DNA of 63,968 bases, counting the filler, from an uncultured bacterium (GTDB lineage Bacteria > CAZSTA01), in the NCBI GenBank assembly GCA_964609495.1. It is 3 parts of 3 records of this genome, joined end to end, with 100 filler letters (N's around TTAATTAATTAA, not from the genome) between each part and the next. Parts side by side here need not be neighbours in the genome. Positions count along the whole stretch, not along the records: positions 1 to 24,996 come from CAZSTA010000033.1; 2 more parts are not named here. One strand, written 5' to 3'. The notes below the pieces were generated by a model. The model was not told the origin of the DNA. It saw nothing but the letters and a program-made list of their open reading frames with translations, and did no database searches. The position numbers were made by a program, and so were the translations under genes. Position 1 is the first letter of the stretch; each line of letters starts with the position of its first letter. Below are positions 1-61,273 of the stretch, piece after piece.

Positions 1-140
1 CCATCGAGGGGGGAGCTAAAGGACTTTAGTTCAATCTCAGTGTTCCCTCTCCCCTTGTGGGAGAGGGATAGGGTGAGGGGGAGTATCATATTCCTCAGCA
101 CAAAGTTTTACATGCTTTGGAAACTTTTTGAAACTACTTA
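1..140. repeat. Partial MITE/REP-like element (CCCTCTCCC..GGGAGAGGG hairpins), ending in TGAAACTACTTA
   Basis: Closely matches the copies near 7620-7800, 11430-11621 and 25440-25600. Confidence 0.8.
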
Positions 141-175
141 AAGCCTTACCATATTATTTTAGCTGCCCAAGTTCG

Positions 176-538
176 CTATTCTCCTAGGATGGAGAAGTTT
201 CTGTTGTTCACATTAGGAGTTAAGGAAGAAGGCGAACCTCTCATCCCATTCCCTATCCTCATATCTTGCCCTCCCTGTCCAGGATTGATTATGATCACCC
301 CCGGATAAGGGGGATATCGCATCTCATTTTGAGGATGAGCTTGAGTAGAATCGGACTCCTGTTTGTTACCCTTTAACATCCAAACTATGATGATACTGAC
401 TGGAATCGAGGCTATGACCCCTAATCCCACTCCCGCGACGATCGCCAAAGCCTGAGCATCTAATTGATTAAGTAATATCCAACCGAAAACTCCCACCATC
501 GTCATCAAAACCATGGTAAAGAAGATCTTGAATCCCAT
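176..538 (-). CDS. Small membrane protein with two TM helices and a Pro/Gly-rich C-terminal tail
   Basis: Two hydrophobic stretches; AGGAGGAG RBS; last gene of the LexA-box operon. Confidence 0.8.
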   Translation of the reverse strand: MGFKIFFTMVLMTMVGVFGWILLNQLDAQALAIVAGVGLGVIASIPVSIIIVWMLKGNKQESDSTQAHPQNEMRYPPYPGVIIINPGQGGQDMRIGNGMRGSPSSLTPNVNNRNFSILGE

Positions 539-553
539 CTTTCTTTCTCCTCC

Positions 554-1783
554 TTAATAGTTTACTCTCTTCCTAATAGCCTTCTTCAGAGAGGCTAGGG
601 ATATTATCCTCTTCGACTCAGTCTCCCTTTTTCTAGACCTCTCTGCGAAGGAGGGAAGTCCTTTCACTAGACTTCTTATCTCCTTATCTTCTATATAAGC
701 TGATTGAAATCTCTCCCTTTTTCCTCCTAATATCGCGATGAAATCTCCTCTCCCTAGTAATCTCTCACATCCTATCTGCTTCTGTCCCGTCGCTATTTTA
801 CTATCCTCGGCGCTCACTACCTTTCCCACTAAGCGACAGGGGATATTTCCTCTAAGCAACCCACTATCTCCCAGGGCTTTAGCCGAAGGTTTCTGCGTGG
901 AGAGAACTAATTGGATACGTGATTGCCTTCCCCTCTGGGAGATCCTTATCAGACTATTTCCTATCTCCTTCTTCTCATCAACTAAGAGCAGATCTAATAG
1001 CTCATCTATGAAGATCAACAGGGGAGTTAATTCACGAGGATCGAGCATCTCCTTATCTCTCCTCTCCATCTCCTTCACTATCTCCCTCAAGACCTGGGCT
1101 GCGATTGGGGGTTCAGTGACGATGGGATAAGCTAAGAACCCCTTCTCATACAATCCTGAGAAGGGGGAGTAACCCCTGGCTTTGGGATCTATGAGGACGA
1201 GCTTAAGGGGGTTAAAGCGAACTAGGGAGGCGATCATAGCTTGAGTGAGACAGGTTTTGCCTCCTCCGGGGACCGAAGCGACTAGGATATGGGGGCAATC
1301 AGGACTGGCTAAGTTGAGGAGAAGGATCTCCCCATCGCTCTTAGTTCCTAAGATCGTCAATAAGGAGTTATCCTCATACGATTCCTTGGGAGGTGAAGAG
1401 GCAATCCTCTTCATCAGATCGGAGAGCAGAACGGGAGAGAAGTCATTATTGGGGATTTGGAGGGTTACATATCCTGGTCCTTTCCTCATAGAGCAGGAAT
1501 CGACTCCTAAAGCTAGAGCTATATCATCAGCGAGGGGGAGGAGTTTATTCAATCTCTGCCCGGGAGCGAGGAGGAGGTGGAATTGAGTGAGACGAGCTCC
1601 CCTAACTCCTCCGATAATGTGAACCTTAAGGCCGAAATTCGCTAAGGTCCATTCAATTATATCCGCTTGATAGTTAAGTATTCTCTCCATCGTCATTTCT
1701 ATCTCCCCTATCCTTGAGCGATCCCTTAATTTCCCCTCCTTATCCCTTCTCTGGAGTTTACCCGATGCCACTCTCCTAAACAA
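554..1783 (-). CDS. FtsK/SpoIIIE-family ATPase (alpha+beta motor only; no N-terminal TM, no gamma domain); start may be 1696
   Basis: Walker A SVPGGGKT, LIDPK, Walker B IFIDE, TQKPS and LLGRGDF motifs. Confidence 0.9.
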   Translation of the reverse strand: MFRRVASGKLQRRDKEGKLRDRSRIGEIEMTMERILNYQADIIEWTLANFGLKVHIIGGVRGARLTQFHLLLAPGQRLNKLLPLADDIALALGVDSCSMRKGPGYVTLQIPNNDFSPVLLSDLMKRIASSPPKESYEDNSLLTILGTKSDGEILLLNLASPDCPHILVASVPGGGKTCLTQAMIASLVRFNPLKLVLIDPKARGYSPFSGLYEKGFLAYPIVTEPPIAAQVLREIVKEMERRDKEMLDPRELTPLLIFIDELLDLLLVDEKKEIGNSLIRISQRGRQSRIQLVLSTQKPSAKALGDSGLLRGNIPCRLVGKVVSAEDSKIATGQKQIGCERLLGRGDFIAILGGKRERFQSAYIEDKEIRSLVKGLPSFAERSRKRETESKRIISLASLKKAIRKRVNY

Positions 1784-1970
1784 CTCCCTCGGTTAATGTC
1801 TCTCTTGCTCGACGCTGGGTTTTTCTCGTTTCAACTTTGAGTCTTCTCTTTTCCTCTTTCACCATCATCTTATATTCCCGCTTATCCATAAATAGCCCGC
1901 ACTTCCGACACCTATATCTTTGGCTCACCACCGAGAAGCCAGCTTCAGAGTCACAGCGAGGACAACGCAT
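1776..1970 (-). CDS. Small Zn-ribbon protein with basic C-terminal helix
   Basis: CPRC...CRKC; AGGAGG RBS; overlaps both neighbours. Confidence 0.7.
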   Translation of the reverse strand: MRCPRCDSEAGFSVVSQRYRCRKCGLFMDKREYKMMVKEEKRRLKVETRKTQRRARETLTEGVV

Positions 1971-2727
1971 ATCTTCTCTCCTCCTTCCTATTGAATTTGA
2001 GGATCATATTAGTTCTAGCTAGCTTATCGACCATTTTACTCCCCAGTAGGTCTTCGAATTCCTTTAATGGAAGGGGAGTAGTGATTATCGTGGGTTTCAG
2101 ATCTCCGTGTCTGCTATCTAATATCGCGATCAGACTATCTTTTAGTTGCTTGGTAAGAGTTTCCAAGCCATCTATCACTAGCAGTCTCACTTCTTTAAGG
2201 AGGAGAGAGACCTCCTCCCTCCCAGCTTTATCTCCCTTGAAGCCCTCAGCTAATCCTCTCATTCCTATCCATACTCCTTCTACTCCTCTTTGGATTAGCC
2301 ATCTCAACATCCCTCCTGCTAGCTGACTCGTCTCCTCTGAGGCTTCTACAAATAGGGCTCCTTCCCCTCTCTTAGCGTGAGAGGGGAATTCCTCCAGATA
2401 TCTCCAGATGGGTTGGAGGAATGGTTTGTCTTCTTCCCTCCTATCCTCATCTAGCATATAGCTTAAGGCTCTCTGACTACCACTAGAGTGCTTCAGGAGG
2501 GAAGCGAGCTTCTTCTGTTTCTGGAGGAGTTGATAGCATTCACAGCGAACTAGACTATAGCTGTTGAGATTACCATTGGAGTTCGTTCCGTCTATGACCT
2601 CGATCCATTCCTCATCTTGACATATCGGACAGATAGGGGAGGAGGCGATCCTAATTGGAGATTTATCTAGCTCCTTTATCTTGTCCTTGACAGATGGATT
2701 GGGTTTTAAGGTAATTATCTTTCCCAT
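1951..2727 (-). CDS. DnaC/IstB-like protein with N-terminal Zn finger and degenerate Walker A
   Basis: CPIC...RCEC, LLVIDGL, ILDSRHGDLKPTIITT; no GxxGxGKT motif. Confidence 0.75.
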   Translation of the reverse strand: MGKIITLKPNPSVKDKIKELDKSPIRIASSPICPICQDEEWIEVIDGTNSNGNLNSYSLVRCECYQLLQKQKKLASLLKHSSGSQRALSYMLDEDRREEDKPFLQPIWRYLEEFPSHAKRGEGALFVEASEETSQLAGGMLRWLIQRGVEGVWIGMRGLAEGFKGDKAGREEVSLLLKEVRLLVIDGLETLTKQLKDSLIAILDSRHGDLKPTIITTPLPLKEFEDLLGSKMVDKLARTNMILKFNRKEERRYALSSL

Positions 2728-2767
2728 GGGTTTTCACCTACCTATCGGGATTTATCCTTCTACTAAT

Positions 2768-2796
2768 ATTATAATCGAACATATGTTCGATGTCAA
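2768..2796 (-). promoter_or_regulatory. Consensus sigma70 promoter with a LexA (Cheo/SOS) box in the spacer
   Basis: Minus strand TTGACA-17-TATAAT; spacer holds CGAAC-ATAT-GTTCG (2776-2789). Confidence 0.9.
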
Positions 2797-2881
2797 GGGG
2801 TTTTTAAAGTTTTTTTTCATTTTCGACCAATTTTTTTGGCAGGATAGGGAAAAATGCTTTGAGAAAAGCACGATTTTTTAC

Positions 2882-2910
2882 TTGACAAATAAGAAATCCT
2901 CTTGTATAAT
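2882..2910 (+). promoter_or_regulatory. Consensus sigma70 promoter of the tyrS leader
   Basis: TTGACA-17-TATAAT. Confidence 0.9.
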
Positions 2911-2924
2911 AACATAAAAGTTTA

Positions 2925-3260
2925 AAAGCGGGAAAAGTTGTGACGAGGATTTAGTAAACTTGTCGGTAAAATCGGCTACAGAGAAACCAGCTTTGTTGAG
3001 AGCTGGTGCCAAGCGGCAGGTCGAATTACCCCTCTGAGCTGTGAGCTGAAAGATGAGTTTAATTCTCTCGTTTATTAGGCTTAACCGGGCTTTAAGCATC
3101 CGTTATAATGCTTGAGGTATTGTAGAAAATATGAAGTGTATCAATTTTCTATAATATACCTACCGAGATCGATACTGTGAGGTATCGATAAATGAGGGTG
3201 GTACCACGAAGGTGAATAACAACCTCTCGTCCCTAATTTCTAAAGGCGAGAGGTTTTTTG
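2925..3260 (+). promoter_or_regulatory. T-box riboswitch (Tyr) with intrinsic terminator
   Basis: T-box AGGGTGGTACCACG (3195-3208); antiterminator partner CGTCCCT; specifier TAC (3027-3029); terminator AACCTCTCG..CGAGAGGTTTTTT. Confidence 0.92.
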
Positions 3261-3287
3261 GTATAACTGGTCGAGGAGGTCACAGTT

Positions 3288-4490
3288 ATGAAGGCAGAGG
3301 AGCAATTGAAGATCATCGAGGAGGGAGTAGAGGAGATCTTGCCTCGAGAGGACCTATTAAGGAAGCTGGAACAAGAGCGTCCTCTACGCGTGAAATACGG
3401 AGCTGATCCAACTGCCCCCGATCTTCACCTGGGTCACGCGCTGTGTATGCGAAAGCTCAAGCAATTGCATGATCTGGGGCATGAGATCGTGTTCGTGATC
3501 GGCGATTTCACTGGACGCTTGGGAGATCCCTCCGAACGAACTGCGACGCGGAAGATGTTGAACAAGGATGAGGTCGAGATCAATGCCAAGACCTATATGG
3601 ACCAGGTATATAAGATGCTAGATCGCGATAGGATTAAGACGATCTTCAATAGCACCTGGTTCGATGATATGACCTTTCAGGAGGTTATCGGGCTGGCCTC
3701 TAAATATACTGTTGCTAAGATGTTGGAGAGAGATGATTTCTCTAATAGATATAAAAATGGACTTCCTATAAGCTTAACCGAGTTCCTATATCCCCTGATC
3801 CAAGGATATGACTCGGTGGCTTTGAAGGCTGATATAGAACTGGGAGGGACCGATCAAAAGTTCAATTTAATAGTAGCCAGGGATATTCAGAAAGGATATG
3901 GACAAGAGCCTCAGGTATTGCTCCTTATGCCCCTCTTAGTTGGTTTAGATGGTGCTGAGAAGATGAGTAAGAGTAAGGGAAATCATATTGGGATAACCGA
4001 GGACCCCGATCAGATGTTCGGCAAAGTGATGTCTTTAGCGGATGAGTTACTCCCGACCTACTTCGAGTTGGCGACTCAGCTACCTAAAGGAGAGATCGAA
4101 GATATAGAGAGAGCATTAGCAAAGGGGCAACTTCATCCGATGGAGGCGAAGAAGAGGTTAGCTAGGGAGATAGTTAAGATGTATCACAGTGAGGAGATAG
4201 CCTCGGCAGCTGAGAAGGAGTTCGAGAGGGTCTTTAGTCGGAAGGAACTCCCGACCGATATTCCAGAATGTTCGGTGTCTGGACTAAAGAATGGTAAGAT
4301 TTGGATCATAAAACTTCTGCTGGAGGCGGGAATGGCAACGACGAATAGCGAAGCCAGGCGCTTAATCAAGCAAGGAGCTGTTAGTATAGACGGAGAGAAG
4401 ATACTGGATGATAATCTCGATCTTGAGATAATCTCAGGACAGATATTACGAGTGGGAAGACGAAGGTTTGCGGAGATAAGGTTGGAATAA
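3288..4490 (+). CDS. tyrS: Tyrosine--tRNA ligase
   Basis: DPTAPDLHLGH, KMSKS, C-terminal S4 domain. Confidence 0.98.
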   Translation: MKAEEQLKIIEEGVEEILPREDLLRKLEQERPLRVKYGADPTAPDLHLGHALCMRKLKQLHDLGHEIVFVIGDFTGRLGDPSERTATRKMLNKDEVEINAKTYMDQVYKMLDRDRIKTIFNSTWFDDMTFQEVIGLASKYTVAKMLERDDFSNRYKNGLPISLTEFLYPLIQGYDSVALKADIELGGTDQKFNLIVARDIQKGYGQEPQVLLLMPLLVGLDGAEKMSKSKGNHIGITEDPDQMFGKVMSLADELLPTYFELATQLPKGEIEDIERALAKGQLHPMEAKKRLAREIVKMYHSEEIASAAEKEFERVFSRKELPTDIPECSVSGLKNGKIWIIKLLLEAGMATTNSEARRLIKQGAVSIDGEKILDDNLDLEIISGQILRVGRRRFAEIRLE

Positions 4491-27412: not shown

Positions 27413-30145
27413 TTAGGGTCTGAAGCTGGCTGTTCTGAACTTCTTCAAATAATCAGGTGATCTAGCAGGCTCTATGCGCACTGCGCAGAACTTGTATTCG
27501 GGGATCTTGGCTATGGGATCTAAGGCAGGATTAGTCAAGATATTAGCGGCAGCATCAGCGAAGTGGAAGGTCATAAAGACTACCCCCGCCTTTGGTCTAT
27601 CAGTTACCTCTGCCCTAGCTATGATACGTCCTCGTCGAGAGGTAACTCTCACTAGATCACCATCGGATATATTGTATCGCTTAGCATCAGCAGGGTTAAG
27701 CTCGACCAATCCCTCGGGATAGATCGCATCAATAGCTGATCTCCCCGTCATCGTTCTGGTGTGGAACTGATATAAAACTCGACCAGTGGTGAAGACAAGG
27801 GGGAATTCCTCATCCGGCTCCTCGGCTGGAGATATGTAATCCACCGCACTGAACTTGCCCAGTCCTCTGCTGAATTCCCCCTGGTGCAAGATTTTAGTGC
27901 CTGGATGATCGACATCTGGACATGGCCATTGAAGCCCCTTCTTATCTAAACGGTTATAGCGAATCCCACCATAGATCGGGGTGAGCGAAGCTATTTCATT
28001 CATAATCTCCGCTGGAGAATCATAGTGCATAGGATAACCCATTCTAGTCGCTAGATCGCATACGATCTTCCAATCATCCCGCGTCTCTCCGGGTAATTCG
28101 ATAGCCTTACGCACCCGCTGGATGCGTCTCTCGGTATTAGTGAAAGTTCCGTCCTTCTCAGCGAAGGATCGACCAGGCAACACTACATCTGCCAATTTAG
28201 CGGTCTCCGTGAGGAATATATCTTGAACGACCAGAAAGTCGAGCTTCTCCAAGCTCTCCCTAACATGATTTATATCAGGATCGCTTACCATCGGGTTTTC
28301 GCCGACGATGAACATCCCCTTTATCTTCCCCTCCCCAGCCGCATTTACCATCTCGACGATTGTTAATCCTGGCTCAGAGGGTAAAGGAACTCCCCAGGCC
28401 TCCTCAAATTTTCTGCGTATTACATCATCAGTAACCTTTTGATACCCAGAGAAGACATTCGGCAATCCTCCCACATCACATGCGCCTTGGACATTGTTCT
28501 GACCGCGTAAGGGATTGACTCCTCCTCCCTCGAGGCCCATATTGCCCAAGAGCATCTGAAGATTAGCACAGGAGAGGACGTTCTGATGTCCATAAGTATG
28601 TTGAGTGATCCCCATCGCATAGAGAAGAGAACTCGGTCGATTATTCCCCAATATCTTCGCCGCTTCCACGATATCACGGGCGGGAACACCGGTGATCTTC
28701 TCCACATATTCCGGATTGTATCTCTCAATGGTAGCTCTGAACTCCTCAAATCCCTCGGTTCGAGTTTCAACGAACTCCTTATCCCATAGATCAAGAGATA
28801 AGATCACGTTCATCAGACCGTTGAGAAGAGCTATATCAGTGCCTGGTTTCTGTTTAAGATGGATAGTGGCGAATTTGCTCAACTCGATAGAGCGAGGATC
28901 AGCTAGAACGAGCTTTACCCCTCTCAGAACCGCCTGCTTTATCAACATCCCAATGACTGGATGCTGTTCAGTAGTATTACTGCCGATGATGAAATAGGAT
29001 CTAGCTTTAGTGGCAATATCCTCAATTGAATTCGTCATCGCTCCGCTACCAAATGCTGTGACCAGACCGGTCACTGTAGGAGAGTGTCAGAGGTGAGCGC
29101 AGTGATCTATGTTATTAGTCCCGATCACTGCCCGCGAGAACTTCTGAACTAAGTAGTTCTCCTCATTGGTGCACTTAGCGGAGGTGAATACACCAAAGGC
29201 ATCGCTACCCTCCTTCTCCTTGATCTCGTTGAATTTGCTCGCAACTAGATCCAGAGCCTCATCCCAGCTAGCCTCTACAAACTCGCCCTCCTTCTTAATA
29301 AGCGGTTCGGTAAGGCGATCGGGACTATGCACGAAGTCCCATCCGAAGCGTCCCTTCACACATAAGAAGCCCTTATTAGCGGGAGCGTCCCAGTTGGAGG
29401 TAACTTTGACTATCTTATTATCCTTGACGTTGAGATCGAAGGAACACCCCACGCCACAATAGGAGCAGGTAGTGGTGATCTTCTTAAGCTCCCAAACTCT
29501 TCCCTTTCCAACAGCTCTCTTTTCAGTAAGCGCACCTACCGGACAGACAGCTATACACAACCCACAAAATACACAAGGGGATTCTTTTAAATCCCCATCA
29601 AAAGCTGTCCCCACCTTAGAGGTGAATCCTCTATTGATAATCCCTATCGCATCTCGGATCTGAAGCTCTTGACAGGCGCGCACGCAACGACGACAGAGAA
29701 TGCACTTGTTATAATCCCGCTCGATAAAGGGATTAGCATCATCTATGGGATAGTGATGCATCTCTCCCCTAAACTCAGTGTCCTTTATCTCATATTTATA
29801 AGCTAAATCCTGCAGAACACAATTCCCATTTTGCTCACAGGTCAAACAATCGAGCGGGTGATCGGACAAGAGTAGTTCTAGGACAAACCTTCTCGCCCTT
29901 ATCACCCTCTCAGAATCGGTCCAGACCTCCATCCCTTCGCTGACCGGAAAACTACAAGCTGGCTGTAAGACCCGCTGTTTAGCTACCTCTACCAAGCAGA
30001 TACGGCAAGCTCCTTCTGGCTTAAGAGCAGGATGATAGCAGAGAGTAGGAATATCAATCCCAATACTTTGAGCCGCCTCCAAGATAGTGCTTCCCGCTTC
30101 CGCTTGCACCTCCCTATCATTTATCTTCAGATTTACCATTGGCAT
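27413..30145 (-). CDS. fdhA: Selenocysteine-containing formate dehydrogenase alpha subunit (910 aa; joins two ORF-track entries)
   Basis: N-terminal NuoG-like FeS domains; [15 protein letters not shown](TGA 29087-29089)-HSPTVTGL in frame; RGQNNVQG. Confidence 0.93.
29058..29089 (-). promoter_or_regulatory. Sec UGA codon plus bacterial SECIS hairpin
   Basis: GTGACC-GGTCT-GGTCAC starting 12 nt after the UGA; loop resembles the E. coli fdhF SECIS. Confidence 0.85.
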
Positions 30146-56452: not shown

Positions 56453-58339
56453 CTAAACAGTAATGTTATACCCTACCGCGCTTACCTCATTATCGAAGTT
56501 GATGTGGGCAAAGCGCAGAGTTCCAACTATCCTATATTGGTCGGTAGCGATTATCCTTTCCGTCTCGATCTTCAGATGGCGTCTCCAGCCTCCCAGCCAG
56601 CCTCGTCTATTCGCGAGGCAGATCTGTCCTTTGGTGTTATTCGCGGGGGTTGCTGAACACTTTCCATCCTCCTCGGTAAGCAACATCTCCTCGGAGACGA
56701 CGATGGGGATTCCAAAGATCTTGCCCAACTCCCCGGTTAAGATCGTGGCTTCTGGCCCGTACCTATCGACTGTCACCACCTCTGCTAGCTCAACTGCCTT
56801 CAAATAAGTAGCGATATCCATAATGAAGGCGAGATCGCTAGGAGTCGCTCCCCAATTTCCCATCAAGCCCCGCAGGATGTTGAAGCCACTCTTGGTCAAG
56901 GTAGCGATATTATCGGCGTCATTTGAAGCATTATCGGTATTCGTAACGAGCGCTAGATGACGAAGCCCATCCATCGCCAAGTAGTTCTTCGTAGAAGCAG
57001 GCTCAGCATCATCGGAGTTGATGTTTCCAGTTGCGGAGGTGGTTGTATCACCGTTTAGGATCACGTTATCTATCCCGTGCAGGGCCGAGGTGATTAACTG
57101 CTGGCGGAGGAAGGGAAGCACGGGAATTATAGAATCCTCATCCATCTCACCTGAATACATCGTATGGATCGCGAACTTCTTCGCCTCGAGCGTCTTATTG
57201 CTGGTTCCAGGGGAATTCTCAGGGAAGTCCGAGGAGTTATATGTAGTGGACTCCGCTACGTAGAACATCTCTGGCAAGGTTGATTCGACGGGAAGCTTAT
57301 AGGGATTGGTGGGCATCTCAAGGAAAGTGAAGAACGAGGCGATCTTTGCCTCCAATCGGATCTTCTCCCAAACTTCAGAGGCGAAGTTAGTGGGGATGAA
57401 TTCAGCTCCTTCTCCCGCGGTCGCCGTGTCGAGAGCTTTGCGAAGCTGTTCGCTGGGCGATCTCCCGCTCGAGGAGAGGATCGCAGTTAGTAGCTCTAAA
57501 TCCCCCAAGCTTTTCAATCCTGCTCTGGCGAATTTAGATCGCACCTCGATTCGCGGCTTTGTAGGGAAGGAGAGCTTCGCATTGATGGGAGTGTTCACTA
57601 TCGTATCCTTGAGCGAGCTCATCTCTTGTCTCAAATCCTGAGCTACCTTCACCTCCTCTTTGATCGATTCCATAGTTTCAGTTAAATTCTCTAAATTACC
57701 TTCTAAGGTCTTAATTCTATCTTCGGTCAATTCGGTATCCTCCTTTTTTGTGAGAATTTTCTTCTCTTTAGTGGGTATAGGTTGTTCATCATCTGAACAA
57801 TCGCTGCCATCCAAAACGCTGAGATCACCTTGAGGAAAGCCATCTTCATCCTCCTCAAGATCGAGGATCTTAACAATGCTGAAGATCGCATCCTGGTTTG
57901 CTGGAACTGTCACGACGGATATCTCCGCCAGATCCCAACGATTGATGTTATTGATGCCCTCGGCATCGACTTCTCCAATGATGTCACTCGTGGTGCAGAT
58001 CGAGAGGGCATTTAGCACCCCTTGTTGGATAAGCGTCCAAACCTCATCGGCAAGCGGTGTTCCCTTGGCGATTCGGGCTTTGATATAGAGACCATCAGGT
58101 AGAATATCGAGTTCAAGAATCCTACCGATGGGCTTATCCAGATCGTGGTTGTATAATAGGATCGGATTACGGAGATAGTTTGCTAATCCCTCTCGAAAAG
58201 CCTCCGGCCAGATGCGGTCTCCAACTCGGTCGATAGCATCTGTCGAGGCATATCCCTCGATGGTCCTATCCTCTTCTTCATCTTCAGATTGATTCATAAT
58301 GGATTTGATCCGAGCGTGCATCGCAAGGTATCTCTTCAT
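56453..58339 (-). CDS. Fused prohead protease (S78) + HK97-fold major capsid protein
   Basis: IEGYAS..DRVGD..LLYNHD..PIG; EISVVTVPAN; coiled-coil scaffold; GAEFIP..; GKIFGIPIVVSE. Confidence 0.92.
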   Translation of the reverse strand: MKRYLAMHARIKSIMNQSEDEEEDRTIEGYASTDAIDRVGDRIWPEAFREGLANYLRNPILLYNHDLDKPIGRILELDILPDGLYIKARIAKGTPLADEVWTLIQQGVLNALSICTTSDIIGEVDAEGINNINRWDLAEISVVTVPANQDAIFSIVKILDLEEDEDGFPQGDLSVLDGSDCSDDEQPIPTKEKKILTKKEDTELTEDRIKTLEGNLENLTETMESIKEEVKVAQDLRQEMSSLKDTIVNTPINAKLSFPTKPRIEVRSKFARAGLKSLGDLELLTAILSSSGRSPSEQLRKALDTATAGEGAEFIPTNFASEVWEKIRLEAKIASFFTFLEMPTNPYKLPVESTLPEMFYVAESTTYNSSDFPENSPGTSNKTLEAKKFAIHTMYSGEMDEDSIIPVLPFLRQQLITSALHGIDNVILNGDTTTSATGNINSDDAEPASTKNYLAMDGLRHLALVTNTDNASNDADNIATLTKSGFNILRGLMGNWGATPSDLAFIMDIATYLKAVELAEVVTVDRYGPEATILTGELGKIFGIPIVVSEEMLLTEEDGKCSATPANNTKGQICLANRRGWLGGWRRHLKIETERIIATDQYRIVGTLRFAHINFDNEVSAVGYNITV

Positions 58340-58356
58340 TAAGATATCACCTCTTT

Positions 58357-59535
58357 CTACTTTCCAATTTCTTTATCTCTTGGGGATAATCCATATCTTC
58401 GAGCTCGAACCTCATCGGGCGTCAGGACGCCATACTTCAGATCGATCTCATCTCGTAGGCGTTGCTCCTCCAAGTTTTGAGGAACTACATCATCGAATTT
58501 CCCTACAAGACGAGCCCCTATCGGGTGAGGATAATCGAACATCGGTAATAGCTCTGCGGTGATCTTCTCCGCAATAGTGGTGAGCTTCGGTTTGATCGTG
58601 TGGGCCATAAAGTTCCGCTCATCGCTCTCTGTGGTCGCTCGATAGCGATTATACAATCCCAAGAGAGAAGCGGGGACGCGAAAGACGGATAGTATCTCAT
58701 CTCTGGAGAACTCTCGCTGGGCTAAGAACTCCGCGTCCTTCGGGGAGATCCCGATCGGTTGATACTCCAGCCCTCGTCCTAAGATCGCTATCTTATGGGA
58801 TCGGGTCACGCCCTTGAAAGATATCTCCCAACGTTTTAAGAGCTCATCAACCTCCTGTTGAGAGAGTCGCTGTTCGGTTTTGAGGAGTCCTGCGGGGCGC
58901 GCGTTATTCGAGAAGAAGGTGCGATTATAGACCTGGGCGTAAAGATCGGTCGAGGTCGCCAAAGCTCCTGCCTCGATCCCTGAGAGGCCATAATACTCAT
59001 CAAGGGGATGCCATCGTTTGAAGCAGATCACCTCCTCAGCTTCGAGGGAGATCGTTTCCTCTTCGACAGTATAGAGATATCCAGCGATGAATTCATCCTT
59101 GGAGGGAACGACCGCTACTCGATGGGGAAAGAGGGGCATAATCTGAATCGGTTCTCCATAGCTATTTTTGATGAGGTACCAGTAAGCTTGCCCTGCTAAC
59201 TCCAGCGATCCGATCGTATGCGCCCATAGCTCGAAGCGGGAGAGCTTCGGATGAGGACGAGTGAGGAGCCTTGTTAAAGGATGATCTGGTAGTTTCTTCA
59301 ATTCATCGCCTTGCTCAGCGAAGACGGAGAAGGGAACAGTTGCACAAGTATCGATAATGAGCGATACACAAGCATATACCCACGATTCTTGCGTATAAGT
59401 GCGGGCGTAGTCATCATATCCTGAAGGTGTTGCTATCTCCTGACCTCCTCTCGTTAGATCGAAATCAGCGAGGATTTGAGTGGAGTTTCTGGGGATTTTG
59501 AAGATCCTGGTGAGGATTTGTTTAAGGAAGGACAT
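58357..59535 (-). CDS. HK97-family portal protein
   Basis: WVYACV; LAGQAYW; YGLSGI; FFSNNARP; FRVPASLLG; TPDEVR. Confidence 0.93.
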   Translation of the reverse strand: MSFLKQILTRIFKIPRNSTQILADFDLTRGGQEIATPSGYDDYARTYTQESWVYACVSLIIDTCATVPFSVFAEQGDELKKLPDHPLTRLLTRPHPKLSRFELWAHTIGSLELAGQAYWYLIKNSYGEPIQIMPLFPHRVAVVPSKDEFIAGYLYTVEEETISLEAEEVICFKRWHPLDEYYGLSGIEAGALATSTDLYAQVYNRTFFSNNARPAGLLKTEQRLSQQEVDELLKRWEISFKGVTRSHKIAILGRGLEYQPIGISPKDAEFLAQREFSRDEILSVFRVPASLLGLYNRYRATTESDERNFMAHTIKPKLTTIAEKITAELLPMFDYPHPIGARLVGKFDDVVPQNLEEQRLRDEIDLKYGVLTPDEVRARRYGLSPRDKEIGK

Positions 59536-59583
59536 CAAGGAACCTCCTGCTATCAACGGATTAAACGGATTCTTGGGATATTT

Positions 59584-59781
59584 TTAGTTTAAAGTGGAGA
59601 TAAGGATGTGTTCGGTAGTCAGTTTAAATATAGACATAATTGCTCTTAGGATGAAACTATAACCGTACTTCTTATCGAACCTAGTTTTGTCTAATTTGAT
59701 CTTGGATGGAGAATCACCATCCTCTGGGATTAACTCAACATCTGGCACTTCATATTCCTGACCTCTGAAGGTTAGCTTCAT
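59584..59781 (-). CDS. Small hypothetical protein (65 aa) between terL and portal
   Basis: GAGGAG RBS before MKLTFRGQEYEV. Confidence 0.5.
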   Translation of the reverse strand: MKLTFRGQEYEVPDVELIPEDGDSPSKIKLDKTRFDKKYGYSFILRAIMSIFKLTTEHILISTLN

Positions 59782-59830
59782 TGGCAGAATCAACTCCTCT
59801 CTTTCGAGATACTTCCTAGAGATACCTAGG

Positions 59831-61273
59831 TTAAAACATCTGTATCTTACCTTCATCACTCAAAGCTACCTCCAGAGCTTTCTCCACCGCATCCAGGGTA
59901 TCATCGTGACGACCAGTAGGGAATTCAAGCCATTCCTTTACAAATTCATCTAATCCCTTTCTAATGCGTATCCTTCCGGATTCGAAGTGCACCGCCATCG
60001 CGGCGAAGCGAGTTTTTTTATCTTTAATTGTTCTGCCAGCGCGCACTGGAAGCGTTGTTGTCGCTAAAAGTTGCTGGTGTAGTGCCGCCTGATAAGCATT
60101 GCTCTCCAAATTTATAATAAGAGGCTTCCAACGAGAGGATTGCTCGGAGACAGCTCTTAGTTGCTCGGGGAAGGAGAGGCGAGCGCGATAGATGTCGAGA
60201 AGCCACAGATGATTATCTGCATCCCTCCCCACTGTAGCTATCGCTGTCCAGTCCGCCTCCTCTCCCTCAGATAAAGCTAGATCCACGCCTTGGTAGATAT
60301 TTAACTCGGCCAGGGGCGGTCGTTCCTCATCATTGTAATATTTTAGCCATTTGGCCAGTAGGAATGCACCGCTATCCCTGGCCGGGACATTTTGTTTTTC
60401 CCGATCGAAGAGGAGTGAACCAGTCGCTAAGCGATCTAAGAGTAAGGTCTTAATATCCCACTTCTCTGGCCACAGCACTTCATAAGAACCGTCAACTACA
60501 ACATCAACTACCTGCCCGGCTTCATCTTCTATATATTCATACTTATCCGGCCATTTCACTATGGCTCGGTCTATATCGCATACCCAAAGGGGGTTTTCCA
60601 TAAGCCGACTGTAGAGATCGTCGTAGTGCTTGCGAGTTCCCACTACAATCACTTGGGTAGCAGGCTCGGCAAGCTGCATAATAGTGCCGTGAAACCAATC
60701 GTAGGTATCCTGTCTGCGTTTAGCCGTCTTGGTATTCTCATCATCCACGATATCGTCAGCTACGATTAGATCGAAGTGTCCACCGGTTATCGCCCCTAAG
60801 GCTCCTACTACTTCTACGGTGGGATCTTTCGATTGACGAGAGCGACGACAGTAGATAGCGGTTTGACTCCAAGGGAGGTCGGGCGAGATGAGATCACCGA
60901 AGTCCTCGCGAATCCGTTCGTTAGTTTCAAGTTCCCGCTTAATGACCGATAGGCATTTCTTCGCCTGCGTGCTGGTCTTACTGAGGATGAGAATGCGCAC
61001 CTCGGGGTCTCTTAGGATGCAATAGAGCGGGTAGGTGATAGTGAAGACCTCGGTCTTCCCATGATCACGGGGAGCTAATTTCAAGAGGCGATTAGCCAAT
61101 GGATCGGAGAAGTCGTTGATCTCATCTAGGATTCTGTACCAACGTCTCTGATGAGCGGGGATTTTTTGATTTCGATAGTAATGGGCAAAGAAGGCAATAT
61201 TCGCTTCAGCTATCGGACGAGACCAGCTCGTCCCCAATGGCTCGCAGAAGTCGGGTTGGTACTGATAGTTCAT
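59831..61273 (-). CDS. terL: Terminase large subunit
   Basis: Walker A PRDHGKT; Walker B IVADD; VGTR coupling motif; nuclease GVDLA and HDDTLDA. Confidence 0.93.
   Translation of the reverse strand: MNYQYQPDFCEPLGTSWSRPIAEANIAFFAHYYRNQKIPAHQRRWYRILDEINDFSDPLANRLLKLAPRDHGKTEVFTITYPLYCILRDPEVRILILSKTSTQAKKCLSVIKRELETNERIREDFGDLISPDLPWSQTAIYCRRSRQSKDPTVEVVGALGAITGGHFDLIVADDIVDDENTKTAKRRQDTYDWFHGTIMQLAEPATQVIVVGTRKHYDDLYSRLMENPLWVCDIDRAIVKWPDKYEYIEDEAGQVVDVVVDGSYEVLWPEKWDIKTLLLDRLATGSLLFDREKQNVPARDSGAFLLAKWLKYYNDEERPPLAELNIYQGVDLALSEGEEADWTAIATVGRDADNHLWLLDIYRARLSFPEQLRAVSEQSSRWKPLIINLESNAYQAALHQQLLATTTLPVRAGRTIKDKKTRFAAMAVHFESGRIRIRKGLDEFVKEWLEFPTGRHDDTLDAVEKALEVALSDEGKIQMF

Follow-up and report, generated by a model that had tools for sequence, protein, structure and literature searches.

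The locus described here is a small operon in a stretch of 63,968 nt, filler included (the window), from the genome of an uncultured bacterium (GenBank assembly GCA_964609495.1). On the minus strand, at 176-2796, four open reading frames (ORFs) lie downstream of one promoter and divergently from tyrS, and ORF listing gave no further gene between the window start and tyrS. In order of transcription they encode a 258-aa relative of the DnaC/DnaI helicase loaders, a 64-aa zinc ribbon, a short FtsK-type motor and a protein with two transmembrane helices (2-TM protein). The promoter spacer is filled by a palindrome that resembles the operator of LexA. Positions and strands of these features are:

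2768-2796, minus strand: sigma-70-type promoter TTGACA-17-TATAAT, 12 of 12 consensus matches in the promoter scan
2791-2796, minus strand: -35 hexamer TTGACA of this 12/12 promoter
2768-2773, minus strand: -10 hexamer TATAAT of the same promoter
2774-2791: putative LexA operator, the 18-nt palindrome ATCGAACATATGTTCGAT, with its core GAAC-N4-GTTC at 2777-2788, filling the promoter spacer
1951-2727, minus strand: DnaC/DnaI-like AAA+ protein of 258 aa with an N-terminal CxxC...CxC cluster and degenerate motifs (phrog_50, PRK08116)
1776-1970, minus strand: zinc ribbon of 64 aa, CxxC-N14-CxxC, with a basic C-terminal tail (weak Pfam matches)
554-1696, minus strand: short FtsK-type motor of 380 aa with alpha and beta domains (PF17854, PF01580)
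176-538, minus strand: 2-TM protein of 120 aa with a cytoplasmic Pro/Gly/Gln-rich tail (hydropathy, family alignment)
156-2867, minus strand: unit common to related contigs, about 2.7 kb, the operon with about 70 nt upstream of the -35 hexamer

The promoter spacer is 17 nt long (2774-2790) and contains CGAACATATGTTCG at 2776-2789, while the final base of the 18-nt palindrome doubles as a base of the -35 hexamer. GAAC-N4-GTTC is a LexA motif first described in Bacillus subtilis and extended to Gram-positive bacteria, as summarized in PMC3323433. It occurs once in the whole window, at the operon promoter; with at most one mismatch, the 14-mer has two matches in the window, a number reached in 17 of 100 shuffles. 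Within the operon, the 64-aa gene overlaps the 258-aa gene by 20 nt, and the 2-TM gene starts 15 nt past the stop codon of the FtsK-like gene.

The FtsK-like ORF was listed at 554-1783 with a TTG start at 1783, and its conserved start is the ATG at 1696, which is preceded by a GGGGAG ribosome-binding site. The protein matches the FtsK alpha domain at residues 33-112 (PF17854, FtsK_alpha; 1.3e-9) and the RecA-like beta domain (PF01580, FtsK_SpoIIIE; 3.8e-18). Walker A (GGGKT) and Walker B (DE) are intact, and G143, G145, K146, T147, D230 and E231 are invariant across 25 motor-family sequences. The gamma domain gave no match in the window motor (PF09397), and an N-terminal membrane domain is absent, the protein beginning at the alpha domain and reaching a 19-residue hydropathy of 1.45 at most. 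A model from AlphaFold2 based on a 25-row alignment (predicted local distance difference test, pLDDT, 84.5) had FtsK motor domains as its best PDB matches (6t8b, 2iut and 2ius; template-modelling scores 0.70-0.76, 27-29% identity), to which it aligns at full length over about 377 columns. Lower in rank were TcpA (0.58), EccC (0.58), HerA (0.47) and VirB4 (0.45).

A word-indexed search with the motor returned 122 proteins. The closest two, 94% and 87% identical, are metagenomic, and the remaining relatives show about 35-43% identity, have 335-453 aa and lack a gamma domain, their sources, where named, being Anaerolineae, Anaerolineales, Thermoflexales and Chloroflexia. Precomputed domains likewise lack gamma in the short homologues P0001-P0085, and longer, distant matches carry it. 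Profile scores for the motor were 315 bits with 82 short Chloroflexota homologues, a profile built without the window's lineage, and 135 bits with four canonical FtsK motors. FtsK/SpoIIIE families of PHROG also match the motor. A reading as a defence system was dropped, as PADLOC gave generic FtsK-domain similarity only (SspH, mad8).

Among the four operon proteins, a 19-residue hydropathy above 1.6 is found in the 120-aa protein only, in two stretches (about residues 5-23 and 30-54); basic residues flank both helices on the N-terminal and tail sides. It falls in the same family as the 2-TM partners of the related motors described below. The family alignment runs through two transmembrane helices, a basic stretch and a Pro/Gln-rich linker to two tail motifs, a PPVVVxNP-like strand (PGVIIINPG in the window) and a C-terminal RxFxV/I-I/V/L-G-E (the window protein ends in RNFSILGE); G36, G40, R113 and G119 are invariant. 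Pfam, NCBIfam and Atlas gave no named family for the protein. A complex prediction from the motor alignment and tail residues 56-120 of the partner reached a score of 0.30 beside a mark of 0.32 and, being without controls, counts neither way.

The DnaC-like protein matches PHROG phrog_50 (3.8e-15), NCBIfam PRK08116 (3e-13) and Escherichia coli DnaC (6qel_G, 5e-4), all under the curated cut-offs, and weakly the IS21 helper IstB. It aligns over most of its length to these DnaC-like families and shares an N-terminal CxxC...CEC cluster with remote relatives, but differs from the DnaC/DnaI/IstB loaders in its ruined ATPase motifs and in lying in an SOS-type operon rather than in a replication module. 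Compared with 10 remote relatives with intact motifs, obtained in an exhaustive phmmer search, the Walker A position reads EASEETS instead of GxxGxGKT, the Walker B position ID-G instead of DD, and sensor I TTP instead of TTN/TSN, and the degenerate residues are invariant across three members of the lineage. With Walker A, Walker B and sensor I lost, the protein cannot be an active loader ATPase, and judged by these motifs "dead DnaC-like protein" is a fair label. Close kin are few and all of the same lineage: two proteins among 5.8 billion, 88% and 78% identical, and one DnaC-like cluster at E<=1e-10 in a library clustered at 50%. An AlphaFold2 model from a three-row alignment was unusable (pLDDT 39). 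The zinc ribbon has weak Pfam matches, the best being Zn_ribbon_SprT (3.7e-4), and is conserved in L082 and L083, two of the related contigs.

The same operon, in identical gene order, was found on three metagenome contigs (L081, L082 and L083), and the 35 nt of promoter and box are identical in these three sequences and the window. Among the lineage members, the operon genes show synonymous divergence (dS) of 0.12-0.47 and ratios of nonsynonymous to synonymous divergence (dN/dS) of 0.12-0.28, with 0.26-0.28 for the DnaC-like gene and 0.19-0.24 for the zinc ribbon. All four genes are therefore real and under purifying selection, and the operator, identical over 35 nt at such dS, is held tighter than silent sites. 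Aligned by blastn, the shared DNA extends from 2867 to 156 in L083, from 2867 to 1692 (contig end) in L081 and from 3125 (contig end) to 137 in L082. It stops sharply at 2867 in L081, which is 99.8% identical, and in L083, which is 85% identical, and its other edge lies at 156 or 137. Around this one upstream breakpoint there are three different left flanks, and the right flanks also differ. No terminal inverted repeats link the two ends of the unit, and by eye no target duplication was seen at its edges. The borders could reflect relocation of a cassette, the presence of two copies in each genome, as in relatives, or ordinary breaks of synteny where the operon ends.

The FtsK-like/2-TM pair and its operator in relatives

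A scan of one genome per species gave at least 417 loci encoding a relative of the motor, and the best 80 were analysed. All but one (79/80) are of the Chloroflexota lineage, an assignment that concerns the relatives of the motor/2-TM pair and not the window. Neighbouring ORFs were clustered across the 80 loci and the window, and representatives were identified by Pfam. The 2-TM gene lies directly downstream of the motor in 70 of the 80 loci and in a diverged form in three more (L001, L011 and L039); in four the downstream DNA is cut off. The DnaC-like and zinc-ribbon genes gave no tblastn match in any of the 80. By this comparison, the conserved unit is the FtsK-like gene and the 2-TM gene only, and the other two genes are confined to the window's lineage.

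In relatives, the place upstream of the motor is usually held by lexA or recA. A LexA gene (PF01726 and PF00717) was identified there in 27 loci, in 24 of them on the same strand within 1.8 kb, and recA in two (L018 and L043). In L002, L003, L007 and L009, a Cys-rich ORF of about 133-145 aa without a family match stands between lexA and the motor and takes the place of the zinc ribbon, no sequence similarity being seen between both. In L022, a SRAP gene separates the motor from the 2-TM gene. Frequent neighbours of the pair are rpsT and holA, and genes that often come after the 2-TM gene encode a DUF6504 protein, in 20 loci, and a soluble 88-aa protein without a name, in 26 (examples of the two at L084:4429-4935, L014:7459-7770 and L009:3594-3857), both absent from the window's lineage. 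In Atlas, the 88-aa protein has hypothetical proteins of Chloroflexota as its neighbours. NCBIfam gave no family for it, for the DUF6504 protein, for the Cys-rich protein (143 aa) or for one 2-TM relative. Five loci (L003, L007, L014, L024 and L076) carry two tandem LexA-family genes upstream of the motor. Both have one or more boxes of their own, typically TAGAAC-N4-GTTCGT at the distal gene, and the two may be LexA paralogues.

Exact GAAC-N4-GTTC boxes, mostly TAGAAC-N4-GTTCTA, were found upstream of the pair in 60 of the 80 loci: within 300 bp before the motor in 39, before a lexA-motor tandem in 19 and before a recA-motor tandem in two. Upstream DNA was too short in three loci. Upstream DNA has 98 boxes in 129,618 bp and the rest of these loci eight in 645,565 bp, an enrichment of about 61-fold. 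An exact box also stands at the start of 31 of the 36 LexA ORFs in the fetched loci, the signature of autoregulation, which identifies the motif as the LexA operator of these organisms. The design seen in the window recurs: read by eye rather than counted by script, TTGACA-box-TATAAT, often with a second box just past the -10 hexamer, is found in L002, L007, L009, L017, L027, L032, L033, L035, L040, L048, L056, L076 and L079, and a single box after TTGACA in L015, L016, L029, L047, L069 and L074.

Three related genomes each contain two full-length FtsK genes, with open frames of 769-959 aa, and two short FtsK-like genes with an adjoining 2-TM gene, so that all six 2-TM family genes in these genomes adjoin a short FtsK-like gene. 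Second copies of the module (L084, L085 and L087) are boxed too, and L084 has the order box, motor, 2-TM, DUF6504, 88-aa protein. The complete genome of one relative (6.4 Mb) has only five exact AGAAC-N4-GTTCT sites, one of which precedes a module by 58 bp; the reversed control pattern gives four. Measured from the six modules, the nearest tyrosine-recombinase (PF00589) matches lie at 30 kb, 52 kb, 73 kb, 335 kb and 1 Mb, and in the remaining case the contig has no such match.

Beside these modules, genome G002 holds further short FtsK-like paralogues (L086, L088 and L089), about 30% identical, with neither a 2-TM partner nor a box, and a 2937-aa frame with seven FtsK-domain matches. In the complete genome, one of the five exact AGAAC-N4-GTTCT sites (G003:C1:2841708-2842789) adjoins tyrosine-recombinase-like fragments and could belong to an SOS-controlled mobile element.

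A first-pass annotation, made from the sequence of the window alone, had described these genes as an SOS-controlled operon of four, taken for an undescribed damage-inducible DNA-translocation or checkpoint module, with a perfect promoter around a LexA-type palindrome, a dead DnaC-like protein, and a motor devoid of membrane anchor and gamma domain for which the adjacent 2-TM protein could supply the anchor. Most of this agrees with the results above: the promoter matches the consensus at all 12 positions; Walker A, Walker B and sensor I of the DnaC-like protein are degenerate; Pfam, hydropathy and fold comparison concur on the motor; and the association of the 2-TM gene with the motor is strict in the three whole genomes (6/6). 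The boxes at LexA ORFs and before the homologous operons bear out the operator type. The four-gene arrangement holds for the window's lineage, but what is conserved beyond it is the pair.

Other features of the window

Next to the operon lie tyrS and its upstream elements:

3288-4490: tyrS, divergent from the operon
2882-2910, plus strand: tyrS promoter, the second 12/12 consensus promoter of the promoter scan
2931-3237, plus strand: T-box leader RF00230 before tyrS (86.8 bits, E 1.4e-19, gathering score 93)

Rfam at the gathering threshold gave nothing in positions 1-3400 of the window, and the T-box was obtained by the E-value threshold only. The best matches of tyrS are 58% identical and spread over many phyla. 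At 56453-61273 (minus strand), genes for an HK97-type prohead protease/major capsid fusion, a portal protein and a large terminase lie among housekeeping genes, with no box nearby. At 27413-29074 and 29087-30145 (minus strand), two adjacent ORFs behind a NuoG-like N-terminus cover positions 1-127 and 135-672 of the profile for formate dehydrogenase alpha. The two look like one gene with a single in-frame stop, possibly a selenocysteine codon.

Possible role of the operon

We infer that LexA very probably acts on the spacer palindrome to shut the strong promoter, and that damage releases it. In an undamaged cell, LexA would occupy the palindrome in the promoter spacer and thereby block RNA polymerase; upon DNA damage, RecA-stimulated cleavage of LexA would free the promoter. 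The motor and the 2-TM protein are likely to form one machine, in which the soluble alpha+beta translocase would be tethered to the membrane by the cytoplasmic tail of its partner, with the tail motifs docking the motor. The task of this machine is the weakest step of the account, and by analogy we prefer a role after damage in which chromosomal DNA is cleared or segregated at the division site. The induced motor, sitting at the membrane and most likely where the cell divides, would shift unsegregated or still-repairing DNA away from the closing septum and would act as a damage-inducible supplement to full-length FtsK proteins such as those of the related genomes. Having no gamma domain, it would have neither sequence-guided direction nor the ability to activate XerCD. 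The dead DnaC/DnaI-like protein and the zinc ribbon would have joined the head of the operon in the window's lineage and are probably non-enzymatic adaptors or regulators, for instance binding a hexameric ring (the replicative helicase or the motor) or, by a guess, acting as a brake on replication. Taken whole, a damage-induced, membrane-tethered translocase of double-stranded DNA (dsDNA) that handles chromosomal DNA at the division site is the account to which we incline, with moderate confidence.

Closest in logic, as judged by analogy, would be dinH-ftsK of E. coli and SmeA-SffA of Streptomyces. In the passages of PMC4080785 that treat it, the dinH promoter drives SOS induction of E. coli ftsK under LexA control, and the 147-kDa FtsK is one polypeptide whose N-terminal domain has predicted membrane-spanning regions. 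The window operon would share with it an FtsK-type dsDNA translocase raised in the SOS response under LexA control, which is putative here, and the window motor has the same alpha+beta fold as the FtsK motor structures from E. coli and Pseudomonas aeruginosa (27-29% identity). It differs in having 380 aa, no gamma domain and its membrane part on the separate 2-TM gene, whereas E. coli FtsK has a linker and a gamma domain. In the relatives, the short motor is moreover an extra paralogue beside full-length FtsK. SftA of B. subtilis is a soluble motor of the FtsK family that has no anchor of its own, acts at the division site and keeps its gamma domain; we know of no dedicated membrane-partner gene and no LexA operator for it.

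The smeA-sffA operon codes for a small membrane protein that recruits an FtsK/SpoIIIE-like translocase to sporulation septa, and its deletion causes a modest chromosome-segregation defect (Ausmees et al. 2007, cited in PMC6428758). The likeness, drawn from the description of that operon, lies in the joining of an FtsK-like gene with the gene for a small membrane protein. The passages on smeA-sffA in PMC6428758 present it as developmentally regulated, a target of BldC and BldD. It is not known to be under LexA control, its gene for the membrane protein comes first, and the organism belongs to another phylum.

Several points weigh against our account. The lone box in the window is not significant by itself, since at least one GAAC-N4-GTTC per 64 kb arises in 44 of 100 shuffles; its weight comes from its position in the promoter, from the identity of 35 nt in four sequences and from the recurrence of the design in distant relatives. 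Neither lexA nor recA is present in the window. An exact box is missing in 17 of the 80 related loci despite sufficient upstream DNA; a looser search, which had no control, showed sites with one or two mismatches at like positions in 14 of these. Control of the pair in the 19 lexA-linked loci presupposes co-transcription, and the gap between lexA and the motor in the 24 same-strand loci is 32-111 bp in 10, 154-267 bp in eight and 434-556 bp in six. The 2-TM gene is absent from L031, L037 and L051 despite ample downstream DNA, the 88-aa gene following directly after the motor in L037 and L051. At least six of 301 sampled genomes of the phylum contained the 2-TM family, usually in two copies; this is a lower bound, as 14 candidates per genome were scored. 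Even so, the module is a feature of certain lineages rather than of the phylum as a whole. A quick IQ-TREE analysis joined the window motor, on a long branch, to canonical FtsK with a long-branch warning, a placement that is unreliable, so that the profile scores were used instead. The sharp 2.7-kb unit in three contexts is as compatible with a relocating cassette as with a fixed housekeeping locus. The roles proposed for the two lineage-specific genes are guesses, and the site of action and the DNA substrate of the motor are assigned by analogy.

The strongest alternative, which we nevertheless consider unlikely, is an SOS checkpoint in which the 2-TM protein is a damage-induced division inhibitor and the FtsK-like ATPase assists it, senses septal DNA or lifts the block. 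YneA, ChiZ, SidA and DidA are damage-induced division inhibitors of this kind, being small, lineage-specific membrane proteins of the SOS response. The 2-TM protein resembles them in being small, lineage-restricted, membrane-bound and under LexA-type control, it has no named family in Pfam, NCBIfam or Atlas, and no other candidate inhibitor was seen in these operons. However, it showed no sequence similarity to these inhibitors in Pfam or NCBIfam, and its pairing with an ATPase (6/6 genes in three genomes) is a tie that a stand-alone inhibitor does not need. Its conserved tail motifs are cytoplasmic, whereas YneA and ChiZ have a periplasmic (LysM) domain, and the motor retains every catalytic motif and the full fold of the FtsK DNA pump. 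The checkpoint overlaps with our account, and both could hold together.

It is improbable, in our view, that the operon serves damage-induced transfer of DNA, whether uptake, export or exchange between cells, to supply a template for recombinational repair in the manner of Ced or Streptomyces TraB. The crenarchaeal Ced system, comprising CedA, CedA1, CedA2 and CedB, imports DNA upon damage, with small membrane proteins and a hexameric ATPase moving the DNA (10.1101/2024.09.27.615246, PMC11823120), and its logic of damage induction and membrane partners is also that proposed here for the window operon. The absence of the gamma domain, the tie of FtsK to chromosome dimer resolution, would fit as well. 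Ced is homologous to conjugation machinery according to the account in PMC9905601, a difference from the window operon. Its ATPase is not an FtsK alpha+beta motor, and it works with Ups pili. To our knowledge archaea lack LexA, so that Ced would not be controlled by it. The named hosts belong to Anaerolineae, Caldilineae, Chloroflexia and Thermoflexia, groups that we take to be filamentous. On the other hand, no pilus, secretin, VirB-type channel or relaxase gene was found in the operon or among its conserved neighbours (DUF6504 and 88-aa proteins), the partner has two transmembrane helices only, and the motor fold is nearest to chromosomal FtsK (0.76), well ahead of the conjugative coupling protein TcpA (0.58), HerA (0.47) and VirB4 (0.45).

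Equally doubtful is that the four genes are the cargo or remnant of a mobile or phage-derived element, with SOS control serving induction of the element. The DnaC-like protein has its best match among phage DnaC-like loaders (phrog_50) and weakly resembles IstB, the motor also matches FtsK/SpoIIIE families of PHROG, the 2.7-kb unit at 156-2867 has one sharp breakpoint and three left flanks with one contig 99.8% identical, and relatives usually carry two copies of the module. However, integrase, transposase, relaxase and structural genes are absent in and next to the unit (window to tyrS, L081-L083), serine recombinases and relaxases having received no specific search. The unit has no terminal inverted repeat and, by eye, no target duplication; the core pair in the 80 relatives sits with lexA, recA, rpsT and holA; and the PADLOC match was of the generic FtsK-domain type. 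All six modules are at least 30 kb from any tyrosine-recombinase match. Constant embedding in complete prophages or integrative elements, which the first-pass annotation had named as fatal to its reading, is not what the relatives show, their modules lying among housekeeping genes. Its other suggestion, a link to a dispersed phage-derived system, by which the HK97-type genes at 56-61 kb may have been meant, found no support: the single GAAC-N4-GTTC of the window is at the operon, so that none precedes these genes, which are 54 kb off and unboxed.

A bolder version of DNA transfer has the motor pumping DNA across septa between neighbours in a filament, or taking DNA up, for recombinational repair, while in the window's lineage the dead DnaC-like protein holds the replicative helicase and pauses replication. 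Damage control, a membrane partner and the missing gamma domain are its only specific support, and we think it very unlikely; if true, it would be a bacterial counterpart of the archaeal Ced system. Least credible of all is that the palindrome stands there by chance or for another regulator and that the operon is constitutive from its strong promoter, for although one GAAC-N4-GTTC in 64 kb is within expectation (44/100 shuffles), boxes are enriched about 61-fold upstream of homologous operons, 31 of 36 lexA genes in the same loci are boxed, and the box-in-spacer design recurs and is perfectly conserved over 35 nt in four sequences.

In the literature covered (full texts, including few subscription papers, without supplements), we found no account of a LexA-controlled short FtsK-like/2-TM pair, of a Chloroflexota SOS regulon containing it, or of DUF6504, in line with the first-pass view of the system as undescribed. 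Both ingredients have precedents elsewhere: an FtsK induced in the SOS response, and an FtsK-like motor that a small membrane protein recruits. Little has been charted of the SOS regulons outside Proteobacteria, Firmicutes and Actinobacteria, and the gene pair described here is bound to the SOS response, often beside lexA or recA, with neither protein having a described function. The window's lineage adds a rare relative of the helicase loaders that has lost its ATPase and is yet selected within an SOS operon. If our reading of a damage-induced, membrane-tethered translocase is correct, Chloroflexota possess a damage-inducible "split FtsK", its motor encoded by one gene and its anchor by another, which would link DNA repair to the handling of the chromosome at the membrane. 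The pair would then be a simple two-protein system for studying the targeting of FtsK-type motors, in which the tail motifs PPVVVxNP and RxFxVIGE offer direct handles for mutagenesis.

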